DNA of 64,000 bases from a bacterium (GTDB lineage: Bacteria > Myxococcota > UBA727 > JAUIJE01): assembly GCA_030431455.1 (NCBI GenBank), contig JAUIJE010000002.1:65294-129293 (forward strand), read 5' to 3'. Positions 7,095-64,000 of this stretch are shown one piece after another. The position numbers and the translations under genes were made by a program. The first letter of the stretch is position 1. Every line of letters starts with the position of its first letter. The notes beneath the pieces are model-generated. The model was not told the DNA's origin. It made no database searches and saw only the letters and a program-made list of their open reading frames with translations.

Positions 7095-9425
7095 TCAGGG
7101 GCTTTCGCAACACCCGACGTCGGGCCCGGCCCCCGCGCTGCGCGAGGCCCCGTACAGGTCGCGCTCGTCGGGGTCGAAGCCCCCGGGGTCGGCGCTTTCG
7201 AACAGGTACCCGCCCGCGCTCGCCTGAAAGGTCAGCCCGTCCACCGCCACCGCCCCCATCGGGCAGGTCGGGTACGGCGCTTCGTCGACGAGCAGCCCAT
7301 AACAGGTCAAGGCGTCATTGACCGCGGGCGCGGGCGGCACCACCACCCCCGCCCCGACCGCCACCCCGGTGACCTTGCCGAACACGCTGTGGTTGACCGA
7401 CACCGCGGGCGCCGCCGGGGCCCCGCCGCCGGCGGGGTTTTTTCGAAACGGCACCACGTCCACCGCCTCCGGGCACCCGCCGAAGGAGAAGACGCTGTTG
7501 ATCACCGCGATGGAGAACGCATCGCCCACGTAGGCGGCCGCGGGGTACATCCCGCAGGCCCCGACCTGAAACAGCGACACCCCCACCAGGCGCACCACGT
7601 TGGCCTCCACCGCGTCCACCACCGCCCCGAAGCTCCCCAGCACAATGCTGTTGCGAAGCTGGGCAGATCCGCCCGCGCGCACCGCGGCGGGGACCGCGAC
7701 CCCGTTGGCGTAAAACGAGACGCGGTCGAAGGTGACGTTCTCCGTGGAGGCGTCGCCGTTCTGCGACAGCCACACCCCGACCTCGGCGGTCGACGCCACG
7801 TAGAACCCGATGTCCTCGAAGCTCACGTCGTGCGCCGCGATGACGCTGATGAGGCCATGCTCGACGGGCGCGGTGTTGGCCAAGAACACCTCAGGGGGCG
7901 ACGGGCTGTTCGCGCTTGACGCCATCGTCACCCCCGACGCGCCCAGGGCGAGCCCATCGGCGCGATACTGGAACAAGTCGGCGTCCGCGGGGGCGACCAA
8001 CTCGATGCGCACCCCCGGCAACACCGCGGCGATCGCGTCCTCGACCCCCTGGGCGCCCACAAAGTCGCAGTCGCGCCCCTCCACCTCTTGGCAACGGCTC
8101 TGGCTCGGGCCCACCAACAACACGTCCGAGAGCGCGCCGCTCCAGGCGCCCGACACCGCCCCGGGGGTGCGGCCGTCGCTGTAGTCCACCCCCATCAAGT
8201 CCACCGGGGGCAGGTCGGGGACATTGGTGGCCGCGATGTCGAGGGCGGCCACGCCCTCGGCGAGGTACGGGTTGTTGGCCGCGACCAGGCCGGGGTTGGC
8301 CGCGCTCACCAGGTTGCTGCCGCCGCCGGGGGGGCCTTGGTAGCCCCACACCACGTTGCCCTCCACCGTGGACAGCGCGCTGGCCGGGGTGGGGGCAAAC
8401 AGGGGGTCATCCTGCAGCGAGAGCGACACAAAGACATTGTTGACCGCGGACAGCTCGCTGGCTCCGCTCACGTTGATGGGGTTGGGCTCCACCACCACGA
8501 TGGTGTTGTGCACAAGGCTCGCCCCCGTGCTGCCCTCCGCGGTCACCCCCGCTTCGAACCACCCCGTGATGTAGCTCGTGGACAACTGTGAATAGCTGCC
8601 CAACCACACCGCCTCGTTGATGTAGTTGTGCCCGTCGTAGGCCGGGGCCAGGCCCCGGATGCGCAACCGCGAAAACCGGCAGTTCTCGGCCAAGGCCGCG
8701 TAGATGGCCCGGACCCCGCCCCCCTCGACGTCGATGCGCAGCCCCTGCAGGCTCACCCCATCGGCGGTGACCTGGATCGTGCCCACGCTCTCAGGCATGC
8801 CCTCGCCCACCACCCGCGGCCGGCTGGTCGCGAACAGGCCGTCGATGTGCACCGCCTTGTCGACGATCCACGGCCCTTGGTAGACCCCGTCGAACACGCG
8901 CAGGGTGTCGCCGTCGGCCATCGCGTCCAGCGCACTCTCGAACACCGCGGGCGCGGTGCCGACAAAATCGCACGGCCCCCCGCACCCGCCCGGGTTGGCC
9001 CCCAACGTGAACACCCCCGCCGGCGTGCCCGCGTCCCCGGGCATCACCCCCGCATCCAGCCCCGCGTCGGCCCGGCCGGCGTCGGCCCGACCGGCGTCGG
9101 CATCGCCATCCCCGTCGCCATCGCCATCCCCGTCGCCATCGCCATCCCCGTCCCCATCGCCGGACGAGCCGGCGTCGGTCCCCCCGTCCTCTGGTTCAAC
9201 AAAGCCGCCGTCCGGGGGCTCGTCGCCGTCGCCATCCCCGTCGCCGTCCCCGTCCCCATCCCCGTCGCCCCCGGGCTGGCAGGTGCCGTCCGCGGCGCAC
9301 ACTTGGTTCGCGCCGCAGTCGGCGTCGTCGTCGCAGAAGGTGGCCAACAGCAGACAGCCGGGGCTGAAAGACCCGGCCCACAACCCGATCAAAAATGCGG
9401 TGGTCGTCCGGCGCGCACGCGTCAT
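7095..9425 (-). CDS. large lipoprotein: N-terminal Cys knot, (GD)n linker, right-handed parallel beta-helix (pectate-lyase fold), module copy 1
   Basis: MTRARRTTTAFLIGLWAGSFSPGCLL..CDDDADCGANQVCAADGTCQPGGDGDGD...; repeated NxxxxG/beta-helix-like segments follow. It lies directly downstream of kynU (44-bp gap) and upstream of the small partner. Confidence 0.7.
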   Translation of the reverse strand: MTRARRTTTAFLIGLWAGSFSPGCLLLATFCDDDADCGANQVCAADGTCQPGGDGDGDGDGDGDGDGDEPPDGGFVEPEDGGTDAGSSGDGDGDGDGDGDGDGDGDGDADAGRADAGRADAGLDAGVMPGDAGTPAGVFTLGANPGGCGGPCDFVGTAPAVFESALDAMADGDTLRVFDGVYQGPWIVDKAVHIDGLFATSRPRVVGEGMPESVGTIQVTADGVSLQGLRIDVEGGGVRAIYAALAENCRFSRLRIRGLAPAYDGHNYINEAVWLGSYSQLSTSYITGWFEAGVTAEGSTGASLVHNTIVVVEPNPINVSGASELSAVNNVFVSLSLQDDPLFAPTPASALSTVEGNVVWGYQGPPGGGSNLVSAANPGLVAANNPYLAEGVAALDIAATNVPDLPPVDLMGVDYSDGRTPGAVSGAWSGALSDVLLVGPSQSRCQEVEGRDCDFVGAQGVEDAIAAVLPGVRIELVAPADADLFQYRADGLALGASGVTMASSANSPSPPEVFLANTAPVEHGLISVIAAHDVSFEDIGFYVASTAEVGVWLSQNGDASTENVTFDRVSFYANGVAVPAAVRAGGSAQLRNSIVLGSFGAVVDAVEANVVRLVGVSLFQVGACGMYPAAAYVGDAFSIAVINSVFSFGGCPEAVDVVPFRKNPAGGGAPAAPAVSVNHSVFGKVTGVAVGAGVVVPPAPAVNDALTCYGLLVDEAPYPTCPMGAVAVDGLTFQASAGGYLFESADPGGFDPDERDLYGASRSAGAGPDVGCCESP

Positions 9426-9468: not shown

Positions 9469-10743
9469 TCAGCCTTGCACCGACCGGCGCAACACCTCGG
9501 CGAACCGCCACACGTCGTCGAACGTGTTGTACAGCGGCACCGGCGCGATGCGGATGACGTCGGGGGGCCGGTAATCGGTCACCACCCCGTGGTCCTGCAA
9601 CACCGCCCGCAACGCCTTGGCGTCCTTTTTGGCCCGAATCGAAACCTGACAGCCGCGGTCTTTTTCCGCCCGGGGCGAGATGACCTCGAAGTGTTCGGTG
9701 CCGATGTCGTCGACGAGGGACAGCAGGTAGTCGATGAGCGCCACCGACTTTTTCCGCAGCCGGGTCATGCCCCCGGCCTCGGAAAAGATGCGCAGGCTGG
9801 CCAGGGCCGGGGCCATGGCGAACACCGGGGCGTTTGAGATTTGCCAGCCCGCCGCCCCCGGCTGGGGCACGAACACGTCCCCCATCTCGAACCGGGATGC
9901 AGGGTCATTGCCCCACCACCCCGCGAACCGGGGCAGCGACGCGTCCTTGGCGTGCCGTTCGTGCACAAACGCGCCCGCCACCGAGCCGGGCCCGCTGTTG
10001 AGGTACTTGTAGCTGCAGAACGCGGCGAAGTCCGGGCCCCAGTCGTGCAGGGACAGTGGCACGTTGCCCGCGGCGTGGGCGAGGTCGAAGCCGCACTTGG
10101 CCCCCGCGGCGTGGGCGGCTTTGGTGATGCGCAAAAGGTCGAACACCTGACCGGTCCGGAAGTTCACCCCGCCGAACATCACCACCGCGACCTTGTCGCC
10201 TTCGGCCTCGAGGTAGGCCTCGATGTCCTCGGTGCGCAGGAGGTCTTCGCCCTCCCGGGGGGCGAGCTCGACCACCGCGTCTTCGGGATCAAAGCCGTGG
10301 ACCTGGGCCTGGCTTTGCACCGCGTATTGGTCCGAGGGGAACGCGCCCTTCTCGACGACGATGCGGTACCGCTCCCTGGTCGGCCGGTAGAAGCTGACCA
10401 TCAACAGGTGCACGTTGGTGGTCAGGCTCTGCATCATCACCACTTCACCCGGCTTGGCCCCGACGACCTCGGCCGCGAGCTCGGTGAAATTCTCGTGGTA
10501 GCTGTACCAGGGCCGCGGGCCCTCGAAGTGACCGTCCACCGCGAGCTCGGCCCACACATCAAGCTCCTCGTTGAGGAGCGTACGCGCCGCTTTGGGCATC
10601 AAGCCCAGGCTGTTGCCGGTGAAGTACACAATGTCACTGCCATCTTTGTGCTTGGGAATGCAGAACCGCTCGCGGAAAGGCGCGAGCTCGTCTTGGCCAT
10701 CCAAGGTGTGGGCGTGTTCGCGGGAGAGGCGGCCTTGGCTCAT
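9469..10743 (-). CDS. kynU: kynureninase
   Basis: ORF 9469..10980; start at ATG 10743 (MSQGRLSREHAHTLDGQDELAPFRERFCIP...). PLP aminotransferase class V pattern with the conserved kynureninase lysine motif (SYKYLNSGPG). The start overlaps the kynB stop (ATGA). Confidence 0.9.
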   Translation of the reverse strand: MSQGRLSREHAHTLDGQDELAPFRERFCIPKHKDGSDIVYFTGNSLGLMPKAARTLLNEELDVWAELAVDGHFEGPRPWYSYHENFTELAAEVVGAKPGEVVMMQSLTTNVHLLMVSFYRPTRERYRIVVEKGAFPSDQYAVQSQAQVHGFDPEDAVVELAPREGEDLLRTEDIEAYLEAEGDKVAVVMFGGVNFRTGQVFDLLRITKAAHAAGAKCGFDLAHAAGNVPLSLHDWGPDFAAFCSYKYLNSGPGSVAGAFVHERHAKDASLPRFAGWWGNDPASRFEMGDVFVPQPGAAGWQISNAPVFAMAPALASLRIFSEAGGMTRLRKKSVALIDYLLSLVDDIGTEHFEVISPRAEKDRGCQVSIRAKKDAKALRAVLQDHGVVTDYRPPDVIRIAPVPLYNTFDDVWRFAEVLRRSVQG

Positions 10744-11537
10744 GACGTTCCTTCGGGGCGCACCGCGAACAGGAGCGGGCGGCTGGGGGCAGATTCGAAC
10801 ACGAAGGGCGGCACCTGCAGGTCGAGCAGGTAACGCCCGTCGTGGACCGCGTCCTCGATGCGGGCCATTTCGGTGATGGTGCGGCGGGCCTCGCCGGCGA
10901 AAAACGCCTTGTGCGCGGGGGTGCCGCCCCCGTCGTCCTCGCGGTCGATGGAGGGCAGGTCCGTGACCAGGTGGCGGCACCCGAGCTCACGCAAAAAATC
11001 GATCGCGGCGGGGGTGAAGTAGGGCGGGTTGGTGCCGGTGAAGGACGGGGCCGCGGCGGCTTGGCCCACCGCCCGCACCACGATGGCGGTGTGGTGCACG
11101 CTCTTTTGCTGCAACAGCGGCGAGGCTTCGAGGGCGGCGCGCACGATGACGCGATCGGTGTCCGCGACCTTGCCCGCGGCTTCGTCGACGGTCCCGGCCC
11201 GGGGCGCGGGGTGCACGGTGACCACGGTGGCGGGGAGCAATCCCTCGTCGAGGGTGGCGTGCACGTCCCCGCCCCCCGGGGTGATGTGGCCGCGGCACTC
11301 GGTGTGGGTGCCGGCCCCGTGGGTACACAGTGACATGGTGTAGCAGTTGACCGAGCCGCCGCGGGCCACGTCCCCCACGAACGAGCCCGCCACCACCGGG
11401 GCGGCGGTGGGCCGGGGCAGACCAAACGCCTCGGGGTTGTGCCCCGCGGGGTCGAAGCGAAGCGGCCAGCTGAGGGGGGCGGGGGCCGCGAGGTCGACGG
11501 TACACGGGGCGTCGTCGAGGACGAGCCGGGCCTTCAT
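10740..11537 (-). CDS. kynB: kynurenine formamidase (cyclase family)
   Basis: C-terminal 265 aa of ORF 10740..12020, from ATG 11537 (MKARLVLDD...). Cyclase-family metal motif THGAGTHTECRGH. The start overlaps the ACMSD stop (ATGA). Confidence 0.75.
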   Translation of the reverse strand: MKARLVLDDAPCTVDLAAPAPLSWPLRFDPAGHNPEAFGLPRPTAAPVVAGSFVGDVARGGSVNCYTMSLCTHGAGTHTECRGHITPGGGDVHATLDEGLLPATVVTVHPAPRAGTVDEAAGKVADTDRVIVRAALEASPLLQQKSVHHTAIVVRAVGQAAAAPSFTGTNPPYFTPAAIDFLRELGCRHLVTDLPSIDREDDGGGTPAHKAFFAGEARRTITEMARIEDAVHDGRYLLDLQVPPFVFESAPSRPLLFAVRPEGTS

Positions 11538-53337: not shown

Positions 53338-55710
53338 TCAGGGGAGCAGCTGCACGGTGGTGGCGGGCAGGGCGCGGGTGTACAGGCGCACCTCGTCGAT
53401 GGTGCCGGGGAACCAGTACCCGCCTTCGTAGGTGCCGAGGGTCATCGGCTCGCTGCCCGCGATGGAGCCGAAGGTGGGCGGGATGAGCGCGAGATCGACC
53501 AACGCGGCGTCGACATACCCCCGGGCTTCGCCGGCCGCGCGATCGAACACCAATGACAAACAATGGGGGGCGCCAGCGAGGGCGTCGGTCCCGAAATCGA
53601 CCACCACCACGGTTTCGTTCACGTCGACGATGTTGGCGTACCAAGACCCCGCGCCCGCGTTGAACAACACCCCCGCTTGGTCGGGGGTGCCGCCGCCGAG
53701 GGAAAAGGGGTTTTCGTTGACGTCGCTGGGGGGCGCCTGGTTGACGCAGGCAAACACGGTGAACGATTCGGCCCCGAGCAGGTCGGAGGTCACGCTGGGA
53801 ACGGTCACATAGGTGTTGGGGCCCGTGACAATGCCATTGCCCAACACGCCGGGGGCCTGGCCGGGGTTGCCCACCAGGACCCCGTCGTGGCCCGCGCCGG
53901 TGTGGTCGGTGACGCCGCCCACCGTCGACTCGAAGCTGTAGTACAGGAGCAGGTCGTCGGGGGGCCCTTGGTGTTCGATGGCGCCGCTGTCGCAGGCCGC
54001 GCCCACCGGGCGGGGGCGCCCGAAGATGTCCGTGGCCGGACACGGGCCGACCGCGCGGTCGATGGCCAATGATGACAAGCGCTGGCCCCAGGGCAAGCCA
54101 AAGCCAAAGGGCTCGTCGGCAAACGGGGACACCGCGGTCGGGGACACGACGTCGCTGGGGCCGGTGCAGATGGGGTCTGGCCCGACGAACACATTCTGGC
54201 CTTGGGAGGTCACGGTGCCGCCCCCGCCGATGAGGCACAGGGCGCTGGCGCTGCCTTGATCAAACACATTGGCGCGAATGTTGACGCTCGGCCCCAAAAA
54301 CAGGTGAAGGCCCACCGGGGTGTTGTTGATGAAGGTGCTGAACGCCACCGTGTTGGTGCTGTTGCCGCAGAACAACACCGCGCCTTCGGTGCCCGGCGAG
54401 GTGTTGTCGACGAACAAGCTCCCGGTGATGGTCAGGCTGACCGGGTCGCAGTTCTGGTCGATGGCGGCGCCCCCCGACGTGGCGGTGTTGCCCTCGAACA
54501 CGCTGGCTTCGATGGTGCTCGAGAACGCGCCCCCGATGAACGCCACCGCGCCACCGAAATCGGTGGCCTGGTTGGACTCGAACCGCGCGCCCACGATCGT
54601 GGTGGGCGTGTCCCGCAGGGCGAGCGCGCCCCCCTTGGTGCCGCCTTGGGCGGCGTTGCCGCTGAACCACGCGTCGCGCACCGTGAGGTCCGAGAGCTCG
54701 GCGCTGATCGCCCCCCCGCCGTCGCTGTCGACGTCGCCCGGCGCGTCCTGCGCGACGTTGTTCACAAACTGGCAGTCGTCGACCACCAACGTCGTGTTCA
54801 GGGCCCGGACCGCGCCCCCCCCGTCGGCGTCGCTGGTCACGCCGTTGCTGAACGCGAGGTGGCGCAGCTCGACGGTGGTGTCCTCGAACCGAAAAAACCG
54901 CTCCAACGACGCAAACGACGTGTGCGCGGCCAAGCCGCCCTCGATGATCATCGCGTCGACATCGCCCATCACCACCTGGGCCAACAGGGTCACCGACGGC
55001 ACCCCCAGCCGCACAAACCAGGGCCCGTTGGGCGCGGCTTGGGCCTCGGCCAACGCCGCCCGCAGCGTGCAGGTGCCGGCCCCGGTGGCACACACCCCGT
55101 CGCCCGGGGTCAGGTCCACCTCGTCGCCGCCGTCGTCGACAAGCAGGTAGGCGTGGTCCGCCTCAACACAAACCGCGTGGGCCTCGGCCGCGGGCACGCC
55201 GCCCGGGGTGCCGCCCAACCCGCACCACACCGCGTCACAGCGCACCGGCTCGAGGAGGCCGCACGCCGGGTCCGGCGCGCCGCAGCCACAATCGCACACC
55301 GCGTCGCCGTGCCGCGCCGGGTCGCAGAACCAATCGCCCGGCACCCCGCCATCGGGCCCGACCACACCCGCATCTCCCGCGTCGCTGACCCCGGCGTCCG
55401 CATCGCCGTCGCCATCGCCATCCCCGTCGCCATCCCCGTCCCCGTCGCCGTCGCCATCCCCGTCCCCGTCGCCATCGCCGTCCCCATCGCCATCCCCGTC
55501 CCCATCCCCGTCCCCATCTCCATCCCCGTCCCCATCGCCGTCCCCGTCCCCGTCGCCGTCGCCGTCGCCCGCTTGGCACACCCCGTCGAGGCACCGGTCG
55601 CCACCGGGACAGTTGGCGTCGCCGTCGCACGGCAGCGGCGTGAGCCCCCAGGTCAAACACCCGGTGCTCGCCACCCCCCAACACAAAAGCCACGCCCCCC
55701 GCCAGGTCAT
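53338..55710 (-). CDS. large lipoprotein: Cys knot, (GD)n linker, right-handed beta-helix, C-terminal LamG-like domain, module copy 2
   Basis: Start at ATG 55710 (MTWRGAWLLCWGVASTGC...CDGDANCPGGDRCLDGVCQAGDGDGD...). CTLRAALAEAQ motif; beta-helix repeats; the C-terminal ...GYWFPGTIDEVRLYTRAL has the LamG pattern. The start overlaps the small partner's stop (ATGA). Confidence 0.75.
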   Translation of the reverse strand: MTWRGAWLLCWGVASTGCLTWGLTPLPCDGDANCPGGDRCLDGVCQAGDGDGDGDGDGDGDGDGDGDGDGDGDGDGDGDGDGDGDGDGDGDGDGDGDGDGDGDADAGVSDAGDAGVVGPDGGVPGDWFCDPARHGDAVCDCGCGAPDPACGLLEPVRCDAVWCGLGGTPGGVPAAEAHAVCVEADHAYLLVDDGGDEVDLTPGDGVCATGAGTCTLRAALAEAQAAPNGPWFVRLGVPSVTLLAQVVMGDVDAMIIEGGLAAHTSFASLERFFRFEDTTVELRHLAFSNGVTSDADGGGAVRALNTTLVVDDCQFVNNVAQDAPGDVDSDGGGAISAELSDLTVRDAWFSGNAAQGGTKGGALALRDTPTTIVGARFESNQATDFGGAVAFIGGAFSSTIEASVFEGNTATSGGAAIDQNCDPVSLTITGSLFVDNTSPGTEGAVLFCGNSTNTVAFSTFINNTPVGLHLFLGPSVNIRANVFDQGSASALCLIGGGGTVTSQGQNVFVGPDPICTGPSDVVSPTAVSPFADEPFGFGLPWGQRLSSLAIDRAVGPCPATDIFGRPRPVGAACDSGAIEHQGPPDDLLLYYSFESTVGGVTDHTGAGHDGVLVGNPGQAPGVLGNGIVTGPNTYVTVPSVTSDLLGAESFTVFACVNQAPPSDVNENPFSLGGGTPDQAGVLFNAGAGSWYANIVDVNETVVVVDFGTDALAGAPHCLSLVFDRAAGEARGYVDAALVDLALIPPTFGSIAGSEPMTLGTYEGGYWFPGTIDEVRLYTRALPATTVQLLP

Positions 55711-56435
55711 TCGACAAGCCCCCACACCAACAGGCCCGCGCCGGCGGCGAGGGACACGACGACGACCACCGGCCCGGCCACGGTGTTGGCCCGGCCCCAC
55801 AGCACCAAACCCGCGCGAACGTCCCCCGGGCTCGACGGGGTGGACAACAGCTGCTCGACGAGCAGGGCTTGGCCGAGCACCGCGGTCGCGGCGAGCGCGC
55901 CGAGCACCAACGCGCCGCCCCCCGCCCACAACATCCACGGCACGCCGCCGGCCGGGGTTTTGGCCGGGGCCACCGGGTCGGGGGGGTGGGCCGCGCCGGT
56001 GGTGAACTTGACCTCGTCGCGCACGAGCTCGAAGAAAGACAGAATCTTCGGCGGGGTGTCCGGCGGCAGTTGGTGGTCGGGCTCGCGCTGCAACACGTGC
56101 AGGAAGTTGAGGCGGGCCTGGACGTCATGGCCGATGACGACGTTGGCCATGCCCGCGTAGAGGTTGGCTTCAAAACGTTGCGCCTTGGTGGCGCCTTTGT
56201 CGCTGGCGGCGATCATCAACTCGTCCGCGGCGGTCTGGTACTCGAGGTTCTCCAGGGCCGCCTTGCCCCGCTCGATGTGGCGGTCGACGTCGTCCGGCGA
56301 GGACAGCGGGGCCAACCAGAGGATGCACACGGCGGTGAGCACAGGGTCGTGACTATCGCAAAACCGCCCCGCCGCCGTCGAGCGACCGCGCGCATACAAA
56401 GTGCGACATCGGGCGCGGCCGGGCCGGGCCGGCAT
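55707..56435 (-). CDS. small TPR-like membrane-anchored protein, module copy 2
   Basis: ...CDSHDPVLTAVCILWLAPLSS signal-like region, then NLEYQTAADELM...RFEANLYAGMANVVIGHDVQARLNFLHVLQREP...PPKILSFFELVRDEV, a Pro linker and a TM hairpin. The start is uncertain (ATG 56435 or GTG 56342). Confidence 0.6.
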   Translation of the reverse strand: MPARPGRARCRTLYARGRSTAAGRFCDSHDPVLTAVCILWLAPLSSPDDVDRHIERGKAALENLEYQTAADELMIAASDKGATKAQRFEANLYAGMANVVIGHDVQARLNFLHVLQREPDHQLPPDTPPKILSFFELVRDEVKFTTGAAHPPDPVAPAKTPAGGVPWMLWAGGGALVLGALAATAVLGQALLVEQLLSTPSSPGDVRAGLVLWGRANTVAGPVVVVVSLAAGAGLLVWGLVE

Positions 56436-57189
56436 GACAAACCCCGGCGCGCGGTGCGAACATGACCGGGTGTCGCTGCTCGTGTTGTTGCCCTGGATCG
56501 CCCTCGCGACGTTCGACGCCGACGCGGCGCTGCAGCGGGCCGACGCCCACGTGCAGAACCTCGACTACGAGCTCGCGCGCGAAGAGCTGCTGGAGCTGCT
56601 CGAGCACAACGACGAGCTGACCCCGGCCCAGCGCCGCGACGCCCACATGATGGCCGGGACCGTGGCCCGCATCCTCAACCGCGACACCGAGTCGCGCATG
56701 CACTACGCGGCCGCGCTCGAGGCGGACCCGGAAGCGTCGCTGCCCCCGGGGCAGCCGCCCAAAATCACGACCTTTTTTGACCTGGTCAAACAAGAGCGCG
56801 CGGCCCGGGCGCCCTTGCCCGCGCCCGCGCCCGAGGTGGCCCCGCCCCCCGCGCCGCCGCCGGCGGCGCCGGCCTCGACCCCCCACCTGCTCTACCTCGG
56901 GGCGGTGGCCGGCGGGGTCGCGGCCGCCGGGTTGGGCGCGGCGGTGCTCGGCGTCGGGCTTTTGCCCCTCGCCCAGTACGGCCTGGCCAAGACCGCCCTC
57001 GACGACAAAGTCTCGCAACGGGACGCGTCGGGGGTGCGCGACCTCTACACCCAACAGGACAACGCCGCGTCGAGCTTCGAGACCTGGGGCCTGCCCCTGG
57101 TGGTGGTGGGGGCGGCCACGGTGGGGCTCGGCGTGGTCGTCGGCGGCAGCGCCGGCGGTCTGTGGCTGGTCGACGGAATGGGAGAATGA
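56434..57189 (+). CDS. small TPR-like membrane-anchored protein, module copy 3
   Basis: MTNPGARCEHDRVSLLVLLPWIALATF, then NLDYELAREELLELLEH...RRDAHMMAGTVARILNRDTESRMHYAAALEADP...PPKITTFFDLVKQE, a Pro linker and a TM hairpin. Its ATG overlaps the ATG of the divergent copy-2 gene by 2 bp. Confidence 0.6.
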   Translation: MTNPGARCEHDRVSLLVLLPWIALATFDADAALQRADAHVQNLDYELAREELLELLEHNDELTPAQRRDAHMMAGTVARILNRDTESRMHYAAALEADPEASLPPGQPPKITTFFDLVKQERAARAPLPAPAPEVAPPPAPPPAAPASTPHLLYLGAVAGGVAAAGLGAAVLGVGLLPLAQYGLAKTALDDKVSQRDASGVRDLYTQQDNAASSFETWGLPLVVVGAATVGLGVVVGGSAGGLWLVDGMGE

Positions 57190-59459
57190 TGCTGCATGCA
57201 CGCGTGGTGATGCTGGGGGCGCTGCTGTGCGGCGCCGGGTGCACGCTGCCCCGCACCGAGCTCGGCAAGCCGTGTGCGGTCGACGGCGACTGCGCCGCGG
57301 GGTTTGTGTGTGTGGATGGGTTGTGTCTCGGCGACAACTTCGACGAGGTCGGCGACGGCGATGGAGACGGAGACGGAGATGGGGACGGGGACGGAGATGA
57401 CGCCGGGTCTTCTGGCGACGGAGACGGAGATGGGGACGGGGACGGCGACGACGGGGGCATGGTCGAGCCCGCGGACGGGGGCGTGACCGATGCCGCTTCG
57501 TCGGGCGACAGCGGTGTGACCGATGCCGCCGACGGGGGCGCCCAGGTCGGGCCCGACGGCGGAGCTGCCGACGCGGGGTCTTCAGGCGACGGGGATGGCG
57601 ATGGCGACGGCGATGGCGATGGCGACGGCGACGGCGATGTGACGTTTGTCGTCGACACCACCGTGGACGATTGGGACATGGATCCCGGCGACAGCGCGTG
57701 CGTGAGCTGGTCGGGGGGCTGTACGCTCCGCGCCGCGATCGAAGAAATCGGCGCGCTCGGCGGCGGGGGCACGGTGGTGGTGCAGGTCAACGCGCCCATC
57801 GAGCTCACCCAGCTCCTCGGCGTCCACCAGGACGTGACCGTGCACGGCAACGGGCTGTCTCTTTTGCCCGCGGGGGCGGACCTGCACCGGGCGTTCTACG
57901 TCGACTTCGGGGCGACCCTGACCATGGACAACGTGGCCATGCGCGGGTTCGCCACCGAGCTCGACAACCCCACCGGGGGGGCCATGGCCATCAACGGCAC
58001 CGTGCTCGGGCAGCGGTTGGTGTTCGAGGACAACCTGGCCGAGGCGTCGCCCGGCAGCGCGTCGGGGGGCGCGGTGGTGATCTGGTCCGGGGCCACCTTT
58101 GACTGCACGGGGTGCATCTTTCGGTACAATCGCATTGTGGGGCCGGGCAGCGGGGGGGCCATCGCCGCGGTGGATGGGTCGAGCCTGCGCCTGGTGGACA
58201 CCACCTTCGACAGCAACAGCGCGGACGTATACGGCGGGGCGATCTACCTGCAAGGGGGCGACACCACCCTCGACCGGTTGACGTTTGTTGACAATGTCGC
58301 TGGAGAAGGGGCCGCGTTTGGTCTGGACTGTTTTACCCCTGGCGACCATTTGGTCACCACCAGCCTGTTCGTGCGCAATGTCGCCACCAGCCCGTCCAGC
58401 GGGGCGGGGGTGGTGCACGGCTGCTCCGGGTCGGTGATCGAGTTCGCCCAGGCGACGTTTTTCCGCAACCAGCCGAGCCTGGTGGGCGGCGACCCCGCGG
58501 TGACGTTCACCGCGTCGATCCTCGACGAGACCACCACCGGGGGCATCTGCCACACGTTTATGCCCCTGGTGTTTTCCGGGGACTACAACGTGTCCGCGAT
58601 CGCCGACCCCAACTGCAGCCTCACCGGGGCCAACGACGAGGGCTCGGTGCCCACCGGGGCCTTGATCCCGGTGTGGGACTCGACGGACACCGCGTCGTGG
58701 CCGAGCCGGTCGTCCCGGGCCTGGGACAAAGTGCCGTTTGTGTTTTGCCCCCCCACCGATCGGTTTGGCCGGGCCCCGACGCCGGGGGGCGCGTGTCCCG
58801 CGGGCGCGGTGTTTGGCCCGACCGGGCTCGATGGGTTGATCAGCGGCTACTGGTCGTTCGACGACGGGCAGGGCACGGTCGCGGCCAACTACGCGAGCGC
58901 CACCAGCGCGGCCCTCGACTTTTCGTTCACCACCCCCGGGGTCTGGGTCAAGGCGCCGTTCGGGGGCCGGGCCTTCGACGTGTCGGGCACCACCGCGTCG
59001 GTGCCCATCTCGCTGCCCTGGGGCACCACCAGCACCTACAGCTTCTCCATCTGCGTGGCCCCCGATGTCGACAACAACACCGACCTCGCCATCGTCGCCC
59101 GGCTCTCGGACATCGTGACCCCCTCGGAGCTGGTGGTCGAGGTCGGCGCGATGGCCAACAAGATTTACGTGTCCAATGGGCCGGAGCTCTTGCTGCACAA
59201 CCTCGGGGACCCCAACCGCACCGAGTGTGTGGCCCTCGTCGTCGACCACCCCAACGACACAATGCGTGTGTACCGGGACGGCGCGTTGTGGGCCACCGAC
59301 TCAGCCCCCACCACCGTGTCCTTTGGCTCTTCGGTGTTGACCCTCAACCCCTCTCCCGAGTTCAGCAACTACGCCGGCCTCGTCGACGAGATGTTGGTGA
59401 TCAACCGCGCGATGTCGGTGGACGAGATCGGCTACCTGCACTCGCGCTTCGCCCCCTGA
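57186..59459 (+). CDS. large lipoprotein: Cys knot, (GD)n linker, right-handed beta-helix, C-terminal LamG-like domain, module copy 3
   Basis: Start at ATG 57186 (MMLHARVVMLGALLCGAGC lipobox ... CAVDGDCAAGFVCVDGLCLG, then GD repeats). GGCTLRAAIEE motif; beta-helix; the C-terminal ...RVYRDGALWATD...GLVDEMLVINRAMSVDEI has the LamG pattern. ATGA overlap with the small partner. Confidence 0.75.
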   Translation: MMLHARVVMLGALLCGAGCTLPRTELGKPCAVDGDCAAGFVCVDGLCLGDNFDEVGDGDGDGDGDGDGDGDDAGSSGDGDGDGDGDGDDGGMVEPADGGVTDAASSGDSGVTDAADGGAQVGPDGGAADAGSSGDGDGDGDGDGDGDGDGDVTFVVDTTVDDWDMDPGDSACVSWSGGCTLRAAIEEIGALGGGGTVVVQVNAPIELTQLLGVHQDVTVHGNGLSLLPAGADLHRAFYVDFGATLTMDNVAMRGFATELDNPTGGAMAINGTVLGQRLVFEDNLAEASPGSASGGAVVIWSGATFDCTGCIFRYNRIVGPGSGGAIAAVDGSSLRLVDTTFDSNSADVYGGAIYLQGGDTTLDRLTFVDNVAGEGAAFGLDCFTPGDHLVTTSLFVRNVATSPSSGAGVVHGCSGSVIEFAQATFFRNQPSLVGGDPAVTFTASILDETTTGGICHTFMPLVFSGDYNVSAIADPNCSLTGANDEGSVPTGALIPVWDSTDTASWPSRSSRAWDKVPFVFCPPTDRFGRAPTPGGACPAGAVFGPTGLDGLISGYWSFDDGQGTVAANYASATSAALDFSFTTPGVWVKAPFGGRAFDVSGTTASVPISLPWGTTSTYSFSICVAPDVDNNTDLAIVARLSDIVTPSELVVEVGAMANKIYVSNGPELLLHNLGDPNRTECVALVVDHPNDTMRVYRDGALWATDSAPTTVSFGSSVLTLNPSPEFSNYAGLVDEMLVINRAMSVDEIGYLHSRFAP

Positions 59460-59582
59460 GCCCCGGTCAAGAAATTCGCCGGGGTGATTTTCTCGGCCAA
59501 AAACTTTCGTCGCACCCCCTTCGCCCTCATTCTGTGACCCGTGGCGCCAACCGCCGCCACTTGTCACCCGGGAGGGCATGGA

Positions 59583-60512
59583 ATGGTCAGCGCAACCGCC
59601 GAAGAACGCCGCAAATCTGAGACCAAACAAACCGGCTGGCAGCCGGGCGAGGTCGAACCTTTGGACGTGGGCCAACCCTACGAACCCGTGCCCCCGCCCA
59701 AGGTCCACCAGCACCAGCGCAGCGGCATCATCCCCATCGGCAACCAGCTCTACCAAGGCGACACCGTCGAGACCTTGCAGAGCTTCGCCGACGACACCTT
59801 CGACTGCGCCATCACCGACCCGCCCTACAACATCGCCAAGAAGGGCAAGAAGGGCCTGGCCTGGGCCTTCTCCTCCCACGTGACCATGGACGAACAGTGG
59901 GACGCGTACTCCACCGACGAATACGAAAAGTTCACCGCGGCGTGGCTGTCCGAACTGTGCCGGGTGGTCAAAGAGAACGGCAACATCTTCATCTTCGGCA
60001 GCTACCACAACATCTACACCATCGGGGCCATCGCCACCCGCATGGACCTGCGTATTGTGAATAGCATCATCTGGGCCAAGCCGAACGCCCAGCCCAACAT
60101 CACCTGCCGGATGTTCACCGAGAGCACCGAACAGGTCATCTGGATCTGCAACAACACCAACAAGAAGGCCAAGAAATGGACGTACAACTACCAGCACATG
60201 AAAGAGCTGAATGGTGGCAAGCAGATGCGCAACTTCTGGGAGATTCCCGTCACGCCGAAGCGTGAGCGCGTGCACGGCAAACACCCGTCGCAAAAGCCCT
60301 TGCGGGTGATGGAGCGCTTGGTGCTCGCGGGCACCAACCCCGGGGACCGGGTGGTGGACTGCTTCGCGGGGTCCGGCTCGACCCTGCTCGCCTGTGACCG
60401 GCTCGACCGGCGCTGGGTCGGCATCGAACGCGACGAAGCCTACTGTGACATCGCCCACCGCCGCCTCGACGACGAACGCCGCCAGCGCCGGCTGCTCAAG
60501 ACCAACACCTGA
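59583..60512 (+). CDS. beta-class N6-adenine DNA methyltransferase, CcrM/M.HinfI family
   Basis: Start at ATG 59583, with GGGAGGG 6 nt upstream. Motif IV DPPYN comes before motif I DCFAGSGST. Strong collinear similarity to CcrM (WDAYSTDEYEKFTAAWL, GSYHNIY, HPSQKP, VGIERDEAY). No restriction-enzyme-like gene is adjacent. Confidence 0.85.
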   Translation: MVSATAEERRKSETKQTGWQPGEVEPLDVGQPYEPVPPPKVHQHQRSGIIPIGNQLYQGDTVETLQSFADDTFDCAITDPPYNIAKKGKKGLAWAFSSHVTMDEQWDAYSTDEYEKFTAAWLSELCRVVKENGNIFIFGSYHNIYTIGAIATRMDLRIVNSIIWAKPNAQPNITCRMFTESTEQVIWICNNTNKKAKKWTYNYQHMKELNGGKQMRNFWEIPVTPKRERVHGKHPSQKPLRVMERLVLAGTNPGDRVVDCFAGSGSTLLACDRLDRRWVGIERDEAYCDIAHRRLDDERRQRRLLKTNT

Positions 60513-60524
60513 CGGAGGCGCGCG

Positions 60525-61292
60525 ATGGGTTCGCCCCGTCCAGCCCACATCGCGGCCTGCGTGCTCCTGGCCTTCGCCACCCCCGCGGGGGCCCAGAGCG
60601 TGCTCTCCGACGACGACCTGCAGTTCCGCACCGACCAGGAGCTGGTCCGGCCCTACGAGGACAAGGTCCAGGCCACCCGGCGCCGGGACATCCAAGCCGG
60701 CATCATCACCGTGGGCTCCGGCGCGCTGGTGGCCGGCACCGCCGCCATCGTGGGCGCGGTGTGGGCCGGCCTCGACGCCGAACAAGGCCCGGTGAGCGAA
60801 GTCCAACTGCTCGGCGGGGGGGCGGTGATCCTCGCCGCCGGGGTCGCGGTGCTCGCGGTCCCGATCATCGACATTGTGCTGTCGCTGTCCCAAGGCAACA
60901 ACACCATTCTTCCCTACAGCTACATTGAGCCCAGCCTGTCCGGGGTGGACGGCGACGACCTCGCCGAGGACGCGGCCCGCGAAGAGGAAGTGCGCTGGCT
61001 GCTCGCGGCCTTGTGCGGCGCCACCGCCATCACCGCCTGGGTCACCGCCGCGGGGGTGGGCGCGGTGTCGGCCCTGCCCCGGGTGTTCAACGCCCCCGGC
61101 TCCACCGTGGCCTTGACCGGCATCGATCGCATCTTGCTCGGGGCCAGCGCGGTGCTGTTCGGGGCCGGCGTGACCGCGGCGGGGGTGGGCGTGTACCTGC
61201 CCTTCTCGCGCGGCAACCGCGAGATCGAACGCGACCTGCGCGACGCGGGCCCACCAGCGGCCCCCGAAGACGGGGCCGAGCCCACCGAATAA
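60525..61292 (+). CDS. secreted/membrane protein, Gly/Ala-rich TM helices (hypothetical)
   Basis: Signal peptide AACVLLAFATPAGAQS; 3-4 hydrophobic helices; GC3-biased. Confidence 0.5.
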   Translation: MGSPRPAHIAACVLLAFATPAGAQSVLSDDDLQFRTDQELVRPYEDKVQATRRRDIQAGIITVGSGALVAGTAAIVGAVWAGLDAEQGPVSEVQLLGGGAVILAAGVAVLAVPIIDIVLSLSQGNNTILPYSYIEPSLSGVDGDDLAEDAAREEEVRWLLAALCGATAITAWVTAAGVGAVSALPRVFNAPGSTVALTGIDRILLGASAVLFGAGVTAAGVGVYLPFSRGNREIERDLRDAGPPAAPEDGAEPTE

Positions 61293-61312: not shown

Positions 61313-62032
61313 ATGACCGCGCCGCTGTTCCTGCTCTGTCTCGCCGTCGGCCAAGCCCCCGCGAGCCAACCCGCGCCCGCGAGCCAACCCGCGTCGATGC
61401 CGGCGTCGATGCCCGCGTCGATGCCCGCGTCGCAACCCGCGATGACCGAGGCGCCGTTGCTCGACCCCGACGACGGGGTGTTCTCCCCCGCCGAACAGCG
61501 CGCCTACACCCGCGAGGCCTTCGCGGTGCAGGCCCGCGCGATCTGGGCCGGGACCGCCATCGTCGGCGGCGGGGTGCTCGCCACCGGCACGTTGCTCGCG
61601 GCCTTGGCCGGGGCCCAGCCCGCCCTGTGGATCGCTGCAGGGGCATTGTGGGCGGGGGCCGGGCTCTCCTTTGTCGCCGCCGGGGTCATGGCCGTGTCCT
61701 ACCAGGTGGTGATGAACGACCTGGCCCTCGGGCCCGCCCTCGAGCTGCGCGCCTGGCCGGCCAGCGACCTCGACCGGGACACGCTGGCCACCTTTCGCTC
61801 TGTCGCCCGGTGGTCGCGCTACGCGGCCGCGGCCGGGCTCGTGGGCGGCGGGGTCACGGTGGCGAGCGCGCTGGCCGGGGTCCAGCTGTTGATGCCCAGC
61901 CTCGACCTCAACCTGCGCGCGGCCTCGGCGGTGGGCACCGGGGCGGCGCTGTCCGCGGCCGGCTTCGGGGTGCTGCTCGCGATCTCACCCACCCCGTATG
62001 AAGTCGAAGCGGTGATCCGCCTCGGCGAGTAG
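61313..62032 (+). CDS. secreted/membrane protein with (ASxP) repeats, Gly/Ala-rich TM helices (hypothetical)
   Basis: MTAPLFLLCLAVGQAPASQPAPASQPASMPASMPAS...; similar architecture to the previous gene. Confidence 0.5.
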   Translation: MTAPLFLLCLAVGQAPASQPAPASQPASMPASMPASMPASQPAMTEAPLLDPDDGVFSPAEQRAYTREAFAVQARAIWAGTAIVGGGVLATGTLLAALAGAQPALWIAAGALWAGAGLSFVAAGVMAVSYQVVMNDLALGPALELRAWPASDLDRDTLATFRSVARWSRYAAAAGLVGGGVTVASALAGVQLLMPSLDLNLRAASAVGTGAALSAAGFGVLLAISPTPYEVEAVIRLGE

Positions 62033-62150
62033 CCCACGCCAAACTGTGAAGAGCGCTAGAGCGCATCTCAAAATCGAAGATGCCGTGCGCTCGCCAGGGC
62101 CACGATGAGCGCCCCATCGGGCGTCTCGTCGCTGGACACTAGAGCGCATC

Positions 62151-62552
62151 TCAGAATCGCCTGAGCAGTAGGGTTACGGCGGCGAGATGGACAAAACCGA
62201 GGTAGTTCTCGGCCTTCTCGTCCCATCTGACCGCCACTCTTCTGAAGCGTTTGAGCCAAGCGAACAGGCGCTCCACCATCCATCGTCGGCGGTACCTTCT
62301 GAACGAACGGCCGTCTTGTTTCCGCTTCGAGGGGCGAATCCCCCGCTTCTTCGGCGCGATGAATTCGATGTCGCGCGCAGCGAGAATCCGGTCGTGCTTC
62401 CCGCTGTCCCACGCCTTGTCACCAATTAGGCGTGGCGGGAGTTCATCCACGAACGCAGCGTCGAGTGTTCGTTCGGTGAGAGCAACATCGTGTCGGTTTC
62501 CTGGAGCAATAGCGAGAGCGAGAGGAAGACCATCTCCGTTTGCGATTGCCAT
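62151..62552 (-). CDS. IS5-family transposase OrfB (catalytic part; in-frame upstream extension to about 62605 via -1 frameshift)
   Basis: ...KGGSCVGVSRAGSTTKLMAIANGDGLPLALAIAPGNRHD...DKAWDSGK...WMVERLFAWLKRFRRVAVRWD shows DDE-region conservation. The stop TGA lies inside IR-L. Confidence 0.75.
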   Translation of the reverse strand: MAIANGDGLPLALAIAPGNRHDVALTERTLDAAFVDELPPRLIGDKAWDSGKHDRILAARDIEFIAPKKRGIRPSKRKQDGRSFRRYRRRWMVERLFAWLKRFRRVAVRWDEKAENYLGFVHLAAVTLLLRRF

Positions 62553-62923
62553 GAGTTTGGTCGTCGAGCCAGCCCGCGAAACCCCAACACATGATCCCCC
62601 TTTTTCGCGGGCACGTAGGTTCCGTCGATGAAGGCTTCCAAGTTGTTGATGCCGCCGCGTTCCACAAGGTCATCCCAAAGTGACTGGAGGATCTTCACAA
62701 AGACGCCCGCCTTGACCCACGACTGAAAGCGCCGATGGCACGTTTGGTACGAGGGGTACTGGCTCGGGAGGTCTGCCCATGGCGCACCCGTCCGGAGCAC
62801 CCACAAGATTCCATTCAGCACCGCACGAGCAGGCTGCGCTGGCCGCCCGCTTCCGTTCGGTCCACGCTTTTGCTCGGGAATCACTGCTTCAATCGTGGCC
62901 CACTGCGCGTTCGTAAGTTTCAT
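62426..62923 (-). CDS. IS5-family transposase OrfA (N-terminal part)
   Basis: MKLTNAQWATIEAVIPEQKRG...ILWVLRTGAPWADLP... is the typical IS5/IS427 OrfA. Productive translation ends near the slippery site GCG AAA AAG GGG (plus-strand 62600..62606). Confidence 0.8.
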   Translation of the reverse strand: MKLTNAQWATIEAVIPEQKRGPNGSGRPAQPARAVLNGILWVLRTGAPWADLPSQYPSYQTCHRRFQSWVKAGVFVKILQSLWDDLVERGGINNLEAFIDGTYVPAKKGDHVLGFRGLARRPNSWQSQTEMVFLSLSLLLQETDTMLLSPNEHSTLRSWMNSRHA

Positions 62924-63125
62924 TCCGCCCGTAGATCAGAACGAGTCCCAGCCGTCGATCGCCGTGGGCGGGAGCAATGCAATGGCGCACTCTCCAGACC
63001 CAACGGCGCCAGCTTCTCGACGTGGGTGAGGCGACCTGCGCGCCGAACAAGCAGAACCTCTTCGAAGCCCAAATGCCCGAAGAAGGCCCGGCTCGAAAGC
63101 GCCGAAGGCGATTTTGAGACGTGCT

Positions 63126-64000
63126 CTAGCCGTAGAGCTCCGACAGGGGGCCAGCGGCCATGCGGGTGGGCCCCTCGGCGCCGAACTCGTCGAGGGCCTG
63201 GCCCGCGCAGTAGCCGAACGTGTTGAACACGTTGGACACCTGCCGGTGCCCCGGCTGGTTGAGCCCGGGGAACACCAAGGTGCGCCCGCCGGTGGTGAGG
63301 CCGAGGGCGCTGCCCCCAAGAAGCAGCATGGGCCAGTCGCTGGCGGTGGAGTGGTGCTGCTCCCCGTTGTCCCCCATGAACACGATGCAGGTGTGGTCGA
63401 GCATCGATCCGCTCTGCCCCGGCTCGGGGGTGGCTTTGAGATTCTTGGCCAGGGTGGTGACCATCTCGATGTGTTGGCGGGTGACCTCGTGGATCGCGGC
63501 CAGGTAAGTGGCATTGCCAGCCGACCCGTGGTGCAGGTCGTGGCGGCCGACGTTGCTCACGCTCGCGTAGCGTACACCGAAGTGCGCGGCCCCGGTCCCC
63601 GAGGCGATCACCGCGACGTTGGTGAGGCCCCCCTTGAGCGCGGCCTCGACGATCTCGAACTGCGCGCGCAGGGTGTCGAGCGGGTTGCCGGACAGGACCA
63701 GGGGGTTGACGTCGGGGTTGGCGGGTTTGACCGCGGTGAGGGCCCCGGCTTGTTGCTCGAGGTCGATGAGGGTCTGTTGGCGGGCGGAGAGTTTTTCCAC
63801 CGCCGCGAGGTAGGTCTCGAGCTTCTCGCGCTCGGTGCTGCTGCCGGAAAAGGTGGAGAGCGAGGCCTCGATGTCGTCCTTGGCGAAGTCGAGCAATGAG
63901 CTTCGCTGGGCGAACGTGGCCTGGCCCCCGGGCGACGCCACCGAGCCGAAGAGCGAGTTGAACGCGGTGTCCGGCGACAGCAAAATCCCCGCCGCCTTGC
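63126..64000 (-). CDS. DUF1552 domain protein (C-terminal part; gene continues past the window end)
   Basis: ...DHTCIVFMGDNGEQHHS...WPMLLLGG matches DUF1552. The stop codon TAG (63126..63128) lies inside the IS right inverted repeat. Confidence 0.65.
   Translation of the reverse strand, partial: KAAGILLSPDTAFNSLFGSVASPGGQATFAQRSSLLDFAKDDIEASLSTFSGSSTEREKLETYLAAVEKLSARQQTLIDLEQQAGALTAVKPANPDVNPLVLSGNPLDTLRAQFEIVEAALKGGLTNVAVIASGTGAAHFGVRYASVSNVGRHDLHHGSAGNATYLAAIHEVTRQHIEMVTTLAKNLKATPEPGQSGSMLDHTCIVFMGDNGEQHHSTASDWPMLLLGGSALGLTTGGRTLVFPGLNQPGHRQVSNVFNTFGYCAGQALDEFGAEGPTRMAAGPLSELYG

Follow-up and report, generated by a model that had tools for sequence, protein, structure and literature searches.

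Conserved orphan DNA methyltransferases are already well established, and Dam, CcrM and CamA have each exposed a layer of epigenetic control acting on replication, repair, development or virulence. A solitary gene, vertical inheritance, conservation within a clade and native composition are the evolutionary hallmarks of orphans with regulatory or housekeeping roles (PMC8187626, PMC6105098, PMC6471742). The beta-class enzymes, described as dimers (PMC7544214), include CcrM, in whose complex with DNA the residues D31-Y34 hold the flipped adenine, Arg44 reads G1 and Arg129 reads T4 (PMC6787082). Within the CcrM/M.HinfI group L42, R44, W57 and D58 of Loop-2B and N120, P123, N124, F125, G127, R129 and N132 of Loop-45 are fully conserved, and both enzymes carry a C-terminal DNA-binding segment of ca. 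80 residues, without which CcrM is inactive (PMC7672430). Here we analyze a gene for a related enzyme located at positions 59583 to 60512 of a 64,000-nucleotide stretch (the window) of contig JAUIJE010000002.1, from the assembly GCA_030431455.1 of an uncultured member of the Myxococcota. A preliminary description had presented it as an orphan of the CcrM/HinfI (GANTC) family in a myxobacterial context, which could be regulatory or left over from a degraded restriction-modification (RM) or phage module. From the comparisons made here we consider it rather probable that the gene codes for a solitary beta-class N6-adenine methyltransferase, native to the chromosome and vertically inherited in uncultured Myxococcota, with GATC as the leading candidate for its target.

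Gene and Predicted Protein

The protein has 309 amino acids, and an identical sequence of the same length is found in the public protein collection (P0001). We have placed the start at the ATG at 59583 and not at the GTG at 59541, because a Shine-Dalgarno-like GGGAGGG precedes the former at a spacing of 6 nt and the homologues begin with MVA or MVS. The gene and the parts of its product are the following, all on the plus strand.

59570..59576, plus strand: Shine-Dalgarno-like GGGAGGG, read from the sequence
59583..60512, plus strand: beta-class N6-adenine DNA methyltransferase coding sequence, 309 amino acids, stop codon included (from the open reading frame (ORF), PF01555, CcrM 6pbd, AlphaFold2/Foldseek and P0001)
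59583..59741, plus strand: N-terminal extension, residues 1-53, low-confidence or disordered (predicted local distance difference test (pLDDT) 49-72 over residues 1-50)
59817..59828, plus strand: catalytic motif IV DPPY, residues 79-82, invariant in the alignments and aligned with CcrM D31-Y34
59829..59903, plus strand: Loop-2B equivalent, residues 83-107, NIAKKGKKGLAWAFSSHVTMDEQWD, family-specific and without the Arg44/Pro45 of CcrM
60072..60134, plus strand: Loop-45 equivalent and next strand, residues 164-184, WAKPNAQPNITCRMFTESTEQ, family signature and presumed target-recognition element
60357..60383, plus strand: S-adenosylmethionine-binding motif I DCFAGSGST, residues 259-267, with D259, F261, G263, G265 and T267 invariant
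60468..60509, plus strand: short basic C-terminal tail, residues 296-309, DDERRQRRLLKTNT, standing where CcrM has its DNA-binding domain of ca. 80 residues

The match to Pfam N6_N4_Mtase (PF01555, E 6e-50, 170.7 bits against a cutoff of 26.7) extends over residues 74-292 and takes in positions 2-220 of the 221 of the profile. The top solved relative is CcrM (6pbd, E 7e-49, residues 54-295 of the query against chain positions 14-258). An AlphaFold2 model, built from an input alignment of 26 homologues and confident in its core (pLDDT >90), also retrieved CcrM first when searched with Foldseek (6pbd_A, E 5e-23), followed by M.BceJIV, the rotifer N4CMT, MboIIA, M1.HpyAVI and RsrI, the top matches being all beta-class. 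The order of the motifs is that of the beta class, with DPPY (motif IV, 79-82) before FAGSG (motif I, 261-265), and the adenine-pocket residues D79, P80, Y82 and K238, equivalent to D31, P32, Y34 and K193 of CcrM, are retained and invariant in the family. The collinearity with the catalytic motifs of CcrM that had been noticed at first sight is thus borne out, and, as far as sequence and predicted fold can tell, 59583-60512 is a genuine and intact gene for a beta-class N6-adenine DNA methyltransferase with its full catalytic apparatus.

By its sequence the enzyme is placed in a distinct subfamily, with KPNAQPNITCRMFTESTEQ as hallmark motif. The core of this family is extremely conserved in the alignment, e.g., NSIIWAKPNAQPNITCRMFTESTEQ, and so are the two loops. 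The Loop-2B core, GLxWAFSSHVT (GLAWAFSSHVT in the window), is near-invariant in the Myxococcota and Poribacteria clades. The Loop-45 equivalent is invariant in the family alignment, and the fraction of its residues identical to those of the window is 0.92 for the Myxococcota clade and 0.86 for the Poribacteria clade, the remaining parts of the Poribacterial proteins having 0.45-0.58. The model has low confidence precisely at the equivalents of Loop-2B (pLDDT <50 at residues 84-104) and Loop-45 (residues 170-180), as would be expected of loops that become ordered upon DNA.

The two ends of the protein behave differently from these loops. When compared to the window sequence, the N-terminal extension has a conservation of 0.25 in Myxococcota, which falls to 0.08 in Poribacteria, and its motif GEVxPxDxxxxYEPV (residues 22-36) is kept in the Myxococcota clade only. 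The same is true of the tail motif ER[RK]QRRL, which is, like the N-terminal one, predicted to be disordered or of low confidence. These two Myxococcota-specific elements could be a substitute for the C-terminal DNA-binding domain of CcrM, or could have a role in turnover.

Distribution, Synteny and Descent

A collection of 5.8 billion proteins contained 1749 homologues at E<=1e-20. The top 120 (60-83% identity, ca. 300 amino acids) all come from metagenome-assembled genomes (MAGs) of Myxococcota, Myxococcales or “Deltaproteobacteria.” When one genome per GTDB species was scanned, relatives appeared in 364 species. The best 32 matches were all uncultured Myxococcota-type genomes (57-76% identity), and next in rank came Poribacteria and some Chloroflexi and Armatimonadia (51-59%). 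The myxobacterial context proposed initially holds in so far as the closest relatives are concerned; on the other hand, these are all uncultured, no cultured myxobacterium was found among the best 80 genome matches, and the developmental character suggested for the genome is conjectural.

For the analysis of synteny we used 35 Myxococcota loci, from MAGs with a G+C content of 0.32-0.72. In 16-19 of them fmt, the gene of methionyl-tRNA formyltransferase, lies directly upstream on the same strand, in some cases abutting or overlapping the methyltransferase gene, and this linkage persists across genomes of 32% to 72% G+C. Downstream, on the opposite strand, the Myxococcota loci have a pair of YscJ/FliF-like and FliG-like genes, found also in relatives at 81%, 75% and 70% identity. 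Pairwise protein identities were calculated for the 18 genomes with adjacent fmt. The methyltransferase was the more conserved of the two proteins in every one of the 153 pairs (mean identity 67%, compared to 47% for Fmt), and the distances measured with one protein are correlated with those measured with the other (Mantel r 0.80, p<=0.0002). A neighbor-joining tree separates a Myxococcota clade (monophyletic except for one locus, L035), a clade of Chloroflexi and others, and a Poribacteria clade. Because of the fmt synteny, the correlated distances, the higher conservation in 153 of 153 pairs and the monophyly apart from L035, we see in these sequences the signature of an old gene, vertically transmitted and under strong purifying selection, unlike a recent RM or prophage remnant.

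Two genomes deserve a comment with regard to copy number and linkage. The MAG CAYLZW01 has two copies of the methyltransferase, on contigs 36 (L005) and 375 (L007), which are 76% and 75% identical to that of the window and are followed by the same genes; either the co-assembly contains heterogeneous strains or a segment has been duplicated. In a MAG labeled as Armatimonadia (L046) a gene for 5-formyltetrahydrofolate cyclo-ligase (7338-7904) adjoins the methyltransferase on its upstream side and fmt is found 1.8 kb upstream. This linkage of folate and formyl genes could be a coincidence, mis-binning or a wider association.

The composition of the gene agrees with that of its surroundings. The G+C at third codon positions (GC3) is 0.887, the neighbors having 0.86-0.93, and its synonymous-codon fit ranks third best among the 39 ORFs of the window, so that the native-like codon usage described earlier was confirmed. 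The local G+C falls to 0.58-0.62 over the gene, which is an effect of amino-acid composition. The wider window is ordinary chromosome, with a two-component system, PBP1A, a radical SAM enzyme and secreted beta-helix/LamG proteins. A phage or plasmid origin was considered and rejected, the best phage homologue being 35.5% identical and the best plasmid one ca. 40%. The match from a Sphingomonas plasmid resembles alphaproteobacterial CcrM, and those from pSRQ700 and Staphylococcus are DpnA-like. Given the GC3, the codon fit, the ordinary chromosomal flanks and the lack of close phage or plasmid homologues, the view that the gene is native to this genome, with no recent import, is supported.

Solitary Genes in Myxococcota and Pairs in Poribacteria

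Pfam and NCBIfam scans of the window proteins found no nuclease adjoining the methyltransferase, and a tblastn search with a MutH-like nuclease as query had no match within the 64 kb. To extend this to the relatives, all ORFs lying up to 5 kb from the gene in 81 loci were clustered and representatives were annotated. No conserved nuclease stands beside the Myxococcota genes, and the methyltransferase is solitary in 35 of the 35 loci. The 105 ORFs flanking these 35 genes contain no restriction-endonuclease family among the 25 Pfam families listed (71 were hit), nor was any such family detected in them by PADLOC; the commonest Pfam families were both formyltransferase domains. A GATC RM cassette, formed by a Dam-like second methylase and a DpnII-family nuclease, is likewise found neither in the window nor in any of the 35 Myxococcota loci. 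The lack of an adjacent endonuclease, already seen in the window by the preliminary description, is therefore a property of the gene throughout this sample.

The situation in Poribacteria is different. Both the tree and the motif place their members in this subfamily (51-59% identity, with the near-invariant Loop-2B and Loop-45), although the N-terminal motif and basic tail of the Myxococcota proteins are missing and the synteny is another (PhyH, oxidoreductase). In at least 23 Poribacteria loci an ORF of ca. 208 amino acids follows the methyltransferase on the same strand after 40-60 bp, and it belongs to the MutH/Sau3AI family (Pfam MutH E 1e-8; PDB MutH 2aoq, over the full length, E 1.4e-8; Sau3AI 4pxg E 9e-6). 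To our knowledge, all characterized members of the MutH/Sau3AI family act at GATC. Since several Poribacteria of the same synteny (L040, L042, L048, L051 and L064) do not have this ORF, the group has lost it more than once. A gene for a HinfI-like endonuclease next to the methyltransferase of related strains had been named beforehand as the sign of an ordinary type II RM system. None was found, and the MutH/Sau3AI-family neighbors of these distant members indicate that the family does include RM-like pairs, which point to GATC and not to GANTC.

Some features of these nuclease-like genes may be recorded here. They often show the motif PN[AF]GSWELK (L037-L083), in which the Asn stands at the position of a catalytic Asp of MutH. 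They may occur as two or three diverged tandem copies, e.g., L063:8913-9539 and 9637-10266, or L071:8796-9422, 9854-10480 and 10581-11207, which recalls the catalytic and effector MutH-like domains of Sau3AI. In another Poribacterial locus (L057:7346-8953) a 535-amino-acid fusion of SIR2_2 and a MutH-like domain, with the Asp retained, lies ca. 1 kb downstream of the methyltransferase and looks like a defense-type effector fusion. Finally, in an unclassified MAG a gene for a DUF6996/DUF6997 protein (L080:4729-5448) is found directly downstream of a methyltransferase of this family, and its product is a possible alternative partner.

The Poribacterial pairs bring up the explanation that the gene stems from an ordinary type II RM system, of which it would be the modifying half, the nuclease being either elsewhere in the genome or recently lost, leaving a decaying remnant. 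A nuclease-family gene that adjoins the Poribacterial members and has been lost repeatedly from the same synteny would agree with this, as would an IS5-family insertion sequence 1.6 kb away and a locus that is rearranged compared to its relatives. However, no nuclease is adjacent in any of the 35 Myxococcota loci in spite of their wide range of G+C, the gene is intact everywhere, conserved beyond Fmt and co-diverging with it, and few ORFs of the window have a more typical codon usage. A functionless remnant would decay and would not hold 57-83% identity across divergent genomes. We thus regard the RM explanation as improbable. Of the two roles contemplated initially, the regulatory or housekeeping one is favored, and the recently degraded RM or phage remnant disfavored, because the gene is solitary in 35 loci, co-diverges with fmt, is conserved above Fmt and has no close phage or plasmid homologue. 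Orphans such as Dam, CamA of C. difficile and those of cyanobacteria and halobacteria are similar in being solitary, vertical, conserved within a clade and of native composition; they differ in enzyme subfamily and host clade, the hosts here being all uncultured.

Comparison with CcrM

CcrM is the nearest solved structure, and the resemblance is considerable: the beta-class order of motifs, the DPPY, the adenine pocket, the SYHNI motif and a probably dimeric core are shared at 37-41% identity, and CcrM is also an orphan conserved within a lineage. Nevertheless, the score against the NCBIfam CcrM equivalog (NF050803) is 223.1 bits, far from the cutoff of 830, and the match covers positions 4-253 of 350, i.e., the catalytic core. 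CcrM contact and group-conserved residues were mapped onto the methyltransferase through phmmer and MAFFT alignments. At Loop-45, N168, P171 and N172 are kept and the other four of the seven are replaced (F125 by I173, G127 by C175, R129 by M177 and N132 by E180). At Loop-2B, L92, W106 and D107 are kept and R44 is replaced, its position falling opposite A93 or W94 according to the alignment program, with no Arg at either. The His134 of CcrM is a Thr here and its Phe63 falls in a gap.

There are other differences. The Loop-2B of the methyltransferase differs in sequence and is 1-3 residues longer, the GADGQ insertion that CcrM has ahead of HPTQKP is missing, and the hosts of the family are Myxococcota, Poribacteria and Chloroflexi instead of Alphaproteobacteria. 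The protein stops 14 residues beyond the catalytic core, whereas CcrM runs ca. 100 further in the alignment; in this the first reading, that the C-terminal extension of CcrM is lacking, was right. The window does not show a Caulobacter-like depletion of GANTC (69 sites observed vs. 79 expected, an observed/expected (O/E) ratio of 0.87). From the 223 bits against 830, the replaced contact residues, the missing C-terminal segment and the undepleted GANTC, we conclude, always at the level of sequence, that the methyltransferase falls outside the CcrM/HinfI group to which it had been assigned, CcrM being its nearest solved structure and not its family. There is an annotation trap in this case, as having CcrM for best match does not imply GANTC or cell-cycle control.

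A GANTC methyltransferase that regulates the cell cycle by a truncated CcrM mechanism would still explain why CcrM is the top match in PDB, by sequence and structure, and in NCBIfam, and why L92, W106, D107, N168, P171, N172 and the SYHNI motif are shared. Moreover, M.HhaII recognizes GANTC without the C-terminal segment (PMC7672430). Against it stand the equivalog score, the replacement or absence of Arg44, Arg129, Phe125, Gly127, Asn132, His134 and Phe63, the undepleted GANTC, the pairing of the Poribacterial relatives with a MutH/Sau3AI-type and not a HinfI-type nuclease, and the lack of a domain whose removal abolishes the activity of CcrM (PMC7672430). All this makes it a long shot.

Last, that the enzyme is an N4-cytosine methyltransferase, or acts on something other than DNA, is very improbable, since PF01555 does span N6 and N4 enzymes, and the rotifer N4CMT and M.PvuII are among the PDB matches, but motif IV is DPPY, where N4 enzymes usually carry SPP[YF], the CcrM residues that form hydrogen bonds with N6, N1 and N7 of adenine are invariant as D79, P80, Y82 and K238, and the best matches are all adenine enzymes.

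The Target Sequence

DpnA-type enzymes provide another comparison. The references were LlaDCHIB, from the three-gene DpnII-type GATC system of the Lactococcus plasmid pSRQ700, and a Staphylococcus plasmid homologue. They are of similar length and also lack a C-terminal domain, and links to GATC-type nucleases are seen in the wider family. They share with the methyltransferase, and not with CcrM, the sequence PN[IL][ST]CR[MY]FT[EH]STE at Loop-45 and the next strand, a KKxK...NY..MK..N.GKQM block and an uninterrupted GKHP[ST]QKP. In the alignment the Loop-45 equivalent is closer to the LlaDCHIB/DpnA-type KTNPAPNLSCRYFTHSTE than to the KSNPMPNFKGTRFANAHE of CcrM. Yet the identity is only 35-37% and Loop-2B is unrelated. 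Besides, DpnA-type enzymes belong to three-gene RM cassettes on mobile DNA, while this methyltransferase is solitary and chromosomal.

We consider GATC the leading candidate because Poribacterial members with the same loops are paired with a MutH/Sau3AI-family nuclease and because Loop-45 is DpnA/LlaDCHIB-like; the chances that these sequence similarities have led to the right motif seem to us about even. The target is probably not GANTC, given the absence of the C-terminal domain and of the G- and T-reading arginines of CcrM, and we give that motif little credit. The rest goes to some third motif.

Several observations weigh against a native, solitary GATC methyltransferase, and we have taken them into account in grading it. 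The window itself does not contain fmt, YscJ or FliG, and tblastn searches with its eight flanking proteins against 83 related loci gave matches in the same genome only, so that the synteny is established among the relatives. The neighbors that the window does share, TPR and beta-helix/LamG genes, are those of L089 and L087. Since the common synteny is missing, the locus would be a rearranged version of the common one, or else the gene has moved in this lineage. The absence of a nuclease holds for the 64-kb window, and a cognate one may be encoded elsewhere in the genome. The Poribacterial MutH-like ORFs have Asn at the catalytic Asp70 of MutH in 27 of 30 copies, which makes their MutH-like activity, and the link to the methyltransferase, uncertain. 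The identity to DpnA-like enzymes (35-37%) is not above that to CcrM (37-41%), Loop-2B resembles neither, and a tree of the three groups, arbitrarily rooted and with branches of near-equal length, does not rank CcrM against DpnA. The O/E of GATC is 0.80 in the window, a mild deficit, and 0.97 in the pooled Myxococcota loci, with 0.87-0.99 for GANTC; in Poribacteria loci that of GATC is lower, 0.67-0.72. These k-mer statistics do not separate GATC from GANTC. Neither motif is in excess within the 200 nt that precede the gene in 31 loci. Autoregulation through upstream GATC or GANTC sites was dropped as a candidate, as these 31 regions show no enrichment.

A Possible Housekeeping Mark

If the gene is the native, solitary enzyme that we propose, it would probably work as a dimer, like other beta-class members, flipping the target adenine into the DPPY pocket. 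The motif would be read by two flexible loops, Loop-2B (GLAWAFSSHVT) and Loop-45 (KPNAQPNITCRM), and the enzyme would operate without the C-terminal domain of CcrM and without its guanine- and thymine-reading arginines. The host chromosome would be methylated after replication at a short fixed motif, in effect a housekeeping epigenetic mark. As there is no nuclease to counteract, this mark would most likely serve the physiology of the host, i.e., gene regulation, replication control or the timing of repair, as in Dam, CcrM and CamA, and not defense. Both the level of conservation and the linkage to fmt fit constitutive housekeeping expression.

One could go further and think of a third housekeeping adenine-methylation system comparable to those of Dam and CcrM, beta-class and probably directed to GATC, that has become a solitary core gene beside fmt in a large radiation of uncultured Myxococcota, occurs in Chloroflexi-type lineages as well, and was recruited from, or donated to, a MutH/Sau3AI-type module surviving in Poribacteria. 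This is a tentative proposal that we rather doubt, although, if true, it would mean a Dam-like epigenetic or strand-marking system run with a non-Dam enzyme, and would illustrate how an enzyme of the RM type, which in Poribacteria has a MutH-like nuclease as partner, turns into a housekeeping gene. In any case, a distinct beta-class subfamily bears the same evolutionary signature as Dam, CcrM and CamA across uncultured Myxococcota of 32%-72% G+C. What it adds to the orphans already described is a candidate for an epigenetic mark common to a whole uncultured clade, and its target motif would define the methylation of a large and unstudied group. Our literature search retrieved nothing relevant on a conserved methyltransferase of Myxococcota or on a myxobacterial methylome.

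The Neighborhood of the Gene

The genes and elements next to the methyltransferase are listed below.

57162..59459, plus strand: upstream neighbor, 765-amino-acid secreted beta-helix/LamG protein with (Gly-Asp)n tracts, no nuclease (Pfam Laminin_G_3, Beta_helix, Chlam_PMP)
60525..61292, plus strand: first downstream neighbor, 255 amino acids, predicted to cross the membrane several times, N-terminus signal-like (Kyte-Doolittle segments)
61313..62032, plus strand: second downstream neighbor, 239-amino-acid predicted membrane protein (hydrophobic segments)
62139..63129, minus strand: IS5-family element with two overlapping transposase ORFs of the frameshift type (NF033580 transpos_IS5_3 on both ORFs)

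The downstream genes had been described as membrane proteins, with an IS5-family element 1.5 kb further on, and they are indeed so predicted from the hydrophobic segments in both. They are weakly alike (BLASTP E 5.5e-5) and have no family match in Pfam or NCBIfam. The element begins 1.6 kb past the stop codon of the methyltransferase and is bounded by inverted repeats of 24 nt (62139-62162 and 63106-63129). Its ORFs have a GC3 of 0.63-0.72 and the two worst codon fits of the window. A solo extra copy of the left inverted repeat lies at 62055-62076, 84 bp outside the element, and at its other side the element adjoins a DUF1552 (HXXSHH) gene (63126-63983, minus strand) right at the stop codon of the latter.

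A scan for promoters and terminators around the methyltransferase gave nothing exceeding shuffled sequences. Directly after the stop codon of the upstream gene there is an inverted repeat, CCCCGG(12 nt)CCGGGG at 59461-59484, then TGATTTTCT, which was seen by eye, the terminator scan having skipped it as its loop of 12 nt is too long. It may insulate the methyltransferase from upstream transcription, a point on which we make no firm claim.

Further upstream, the secreted beta-helix and LamG protein at 57162-59459 (plus strand) has a paralogue at 53338-55938 (minus strand), and between them there is a divergent pair of TPR-like ORFs (55707-56435, minus strand, and 56401-57189, plus strand). In one of the relatives (L089) LamG and beta-helix genes likewise flank the methyltransferase. 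Both paralogues of the window have long (Gly-Asp)n tracts, which appear in the DNA as tandem repeats of period 6/18 at 55395-55571, 57350-57468 and 57585-57639.

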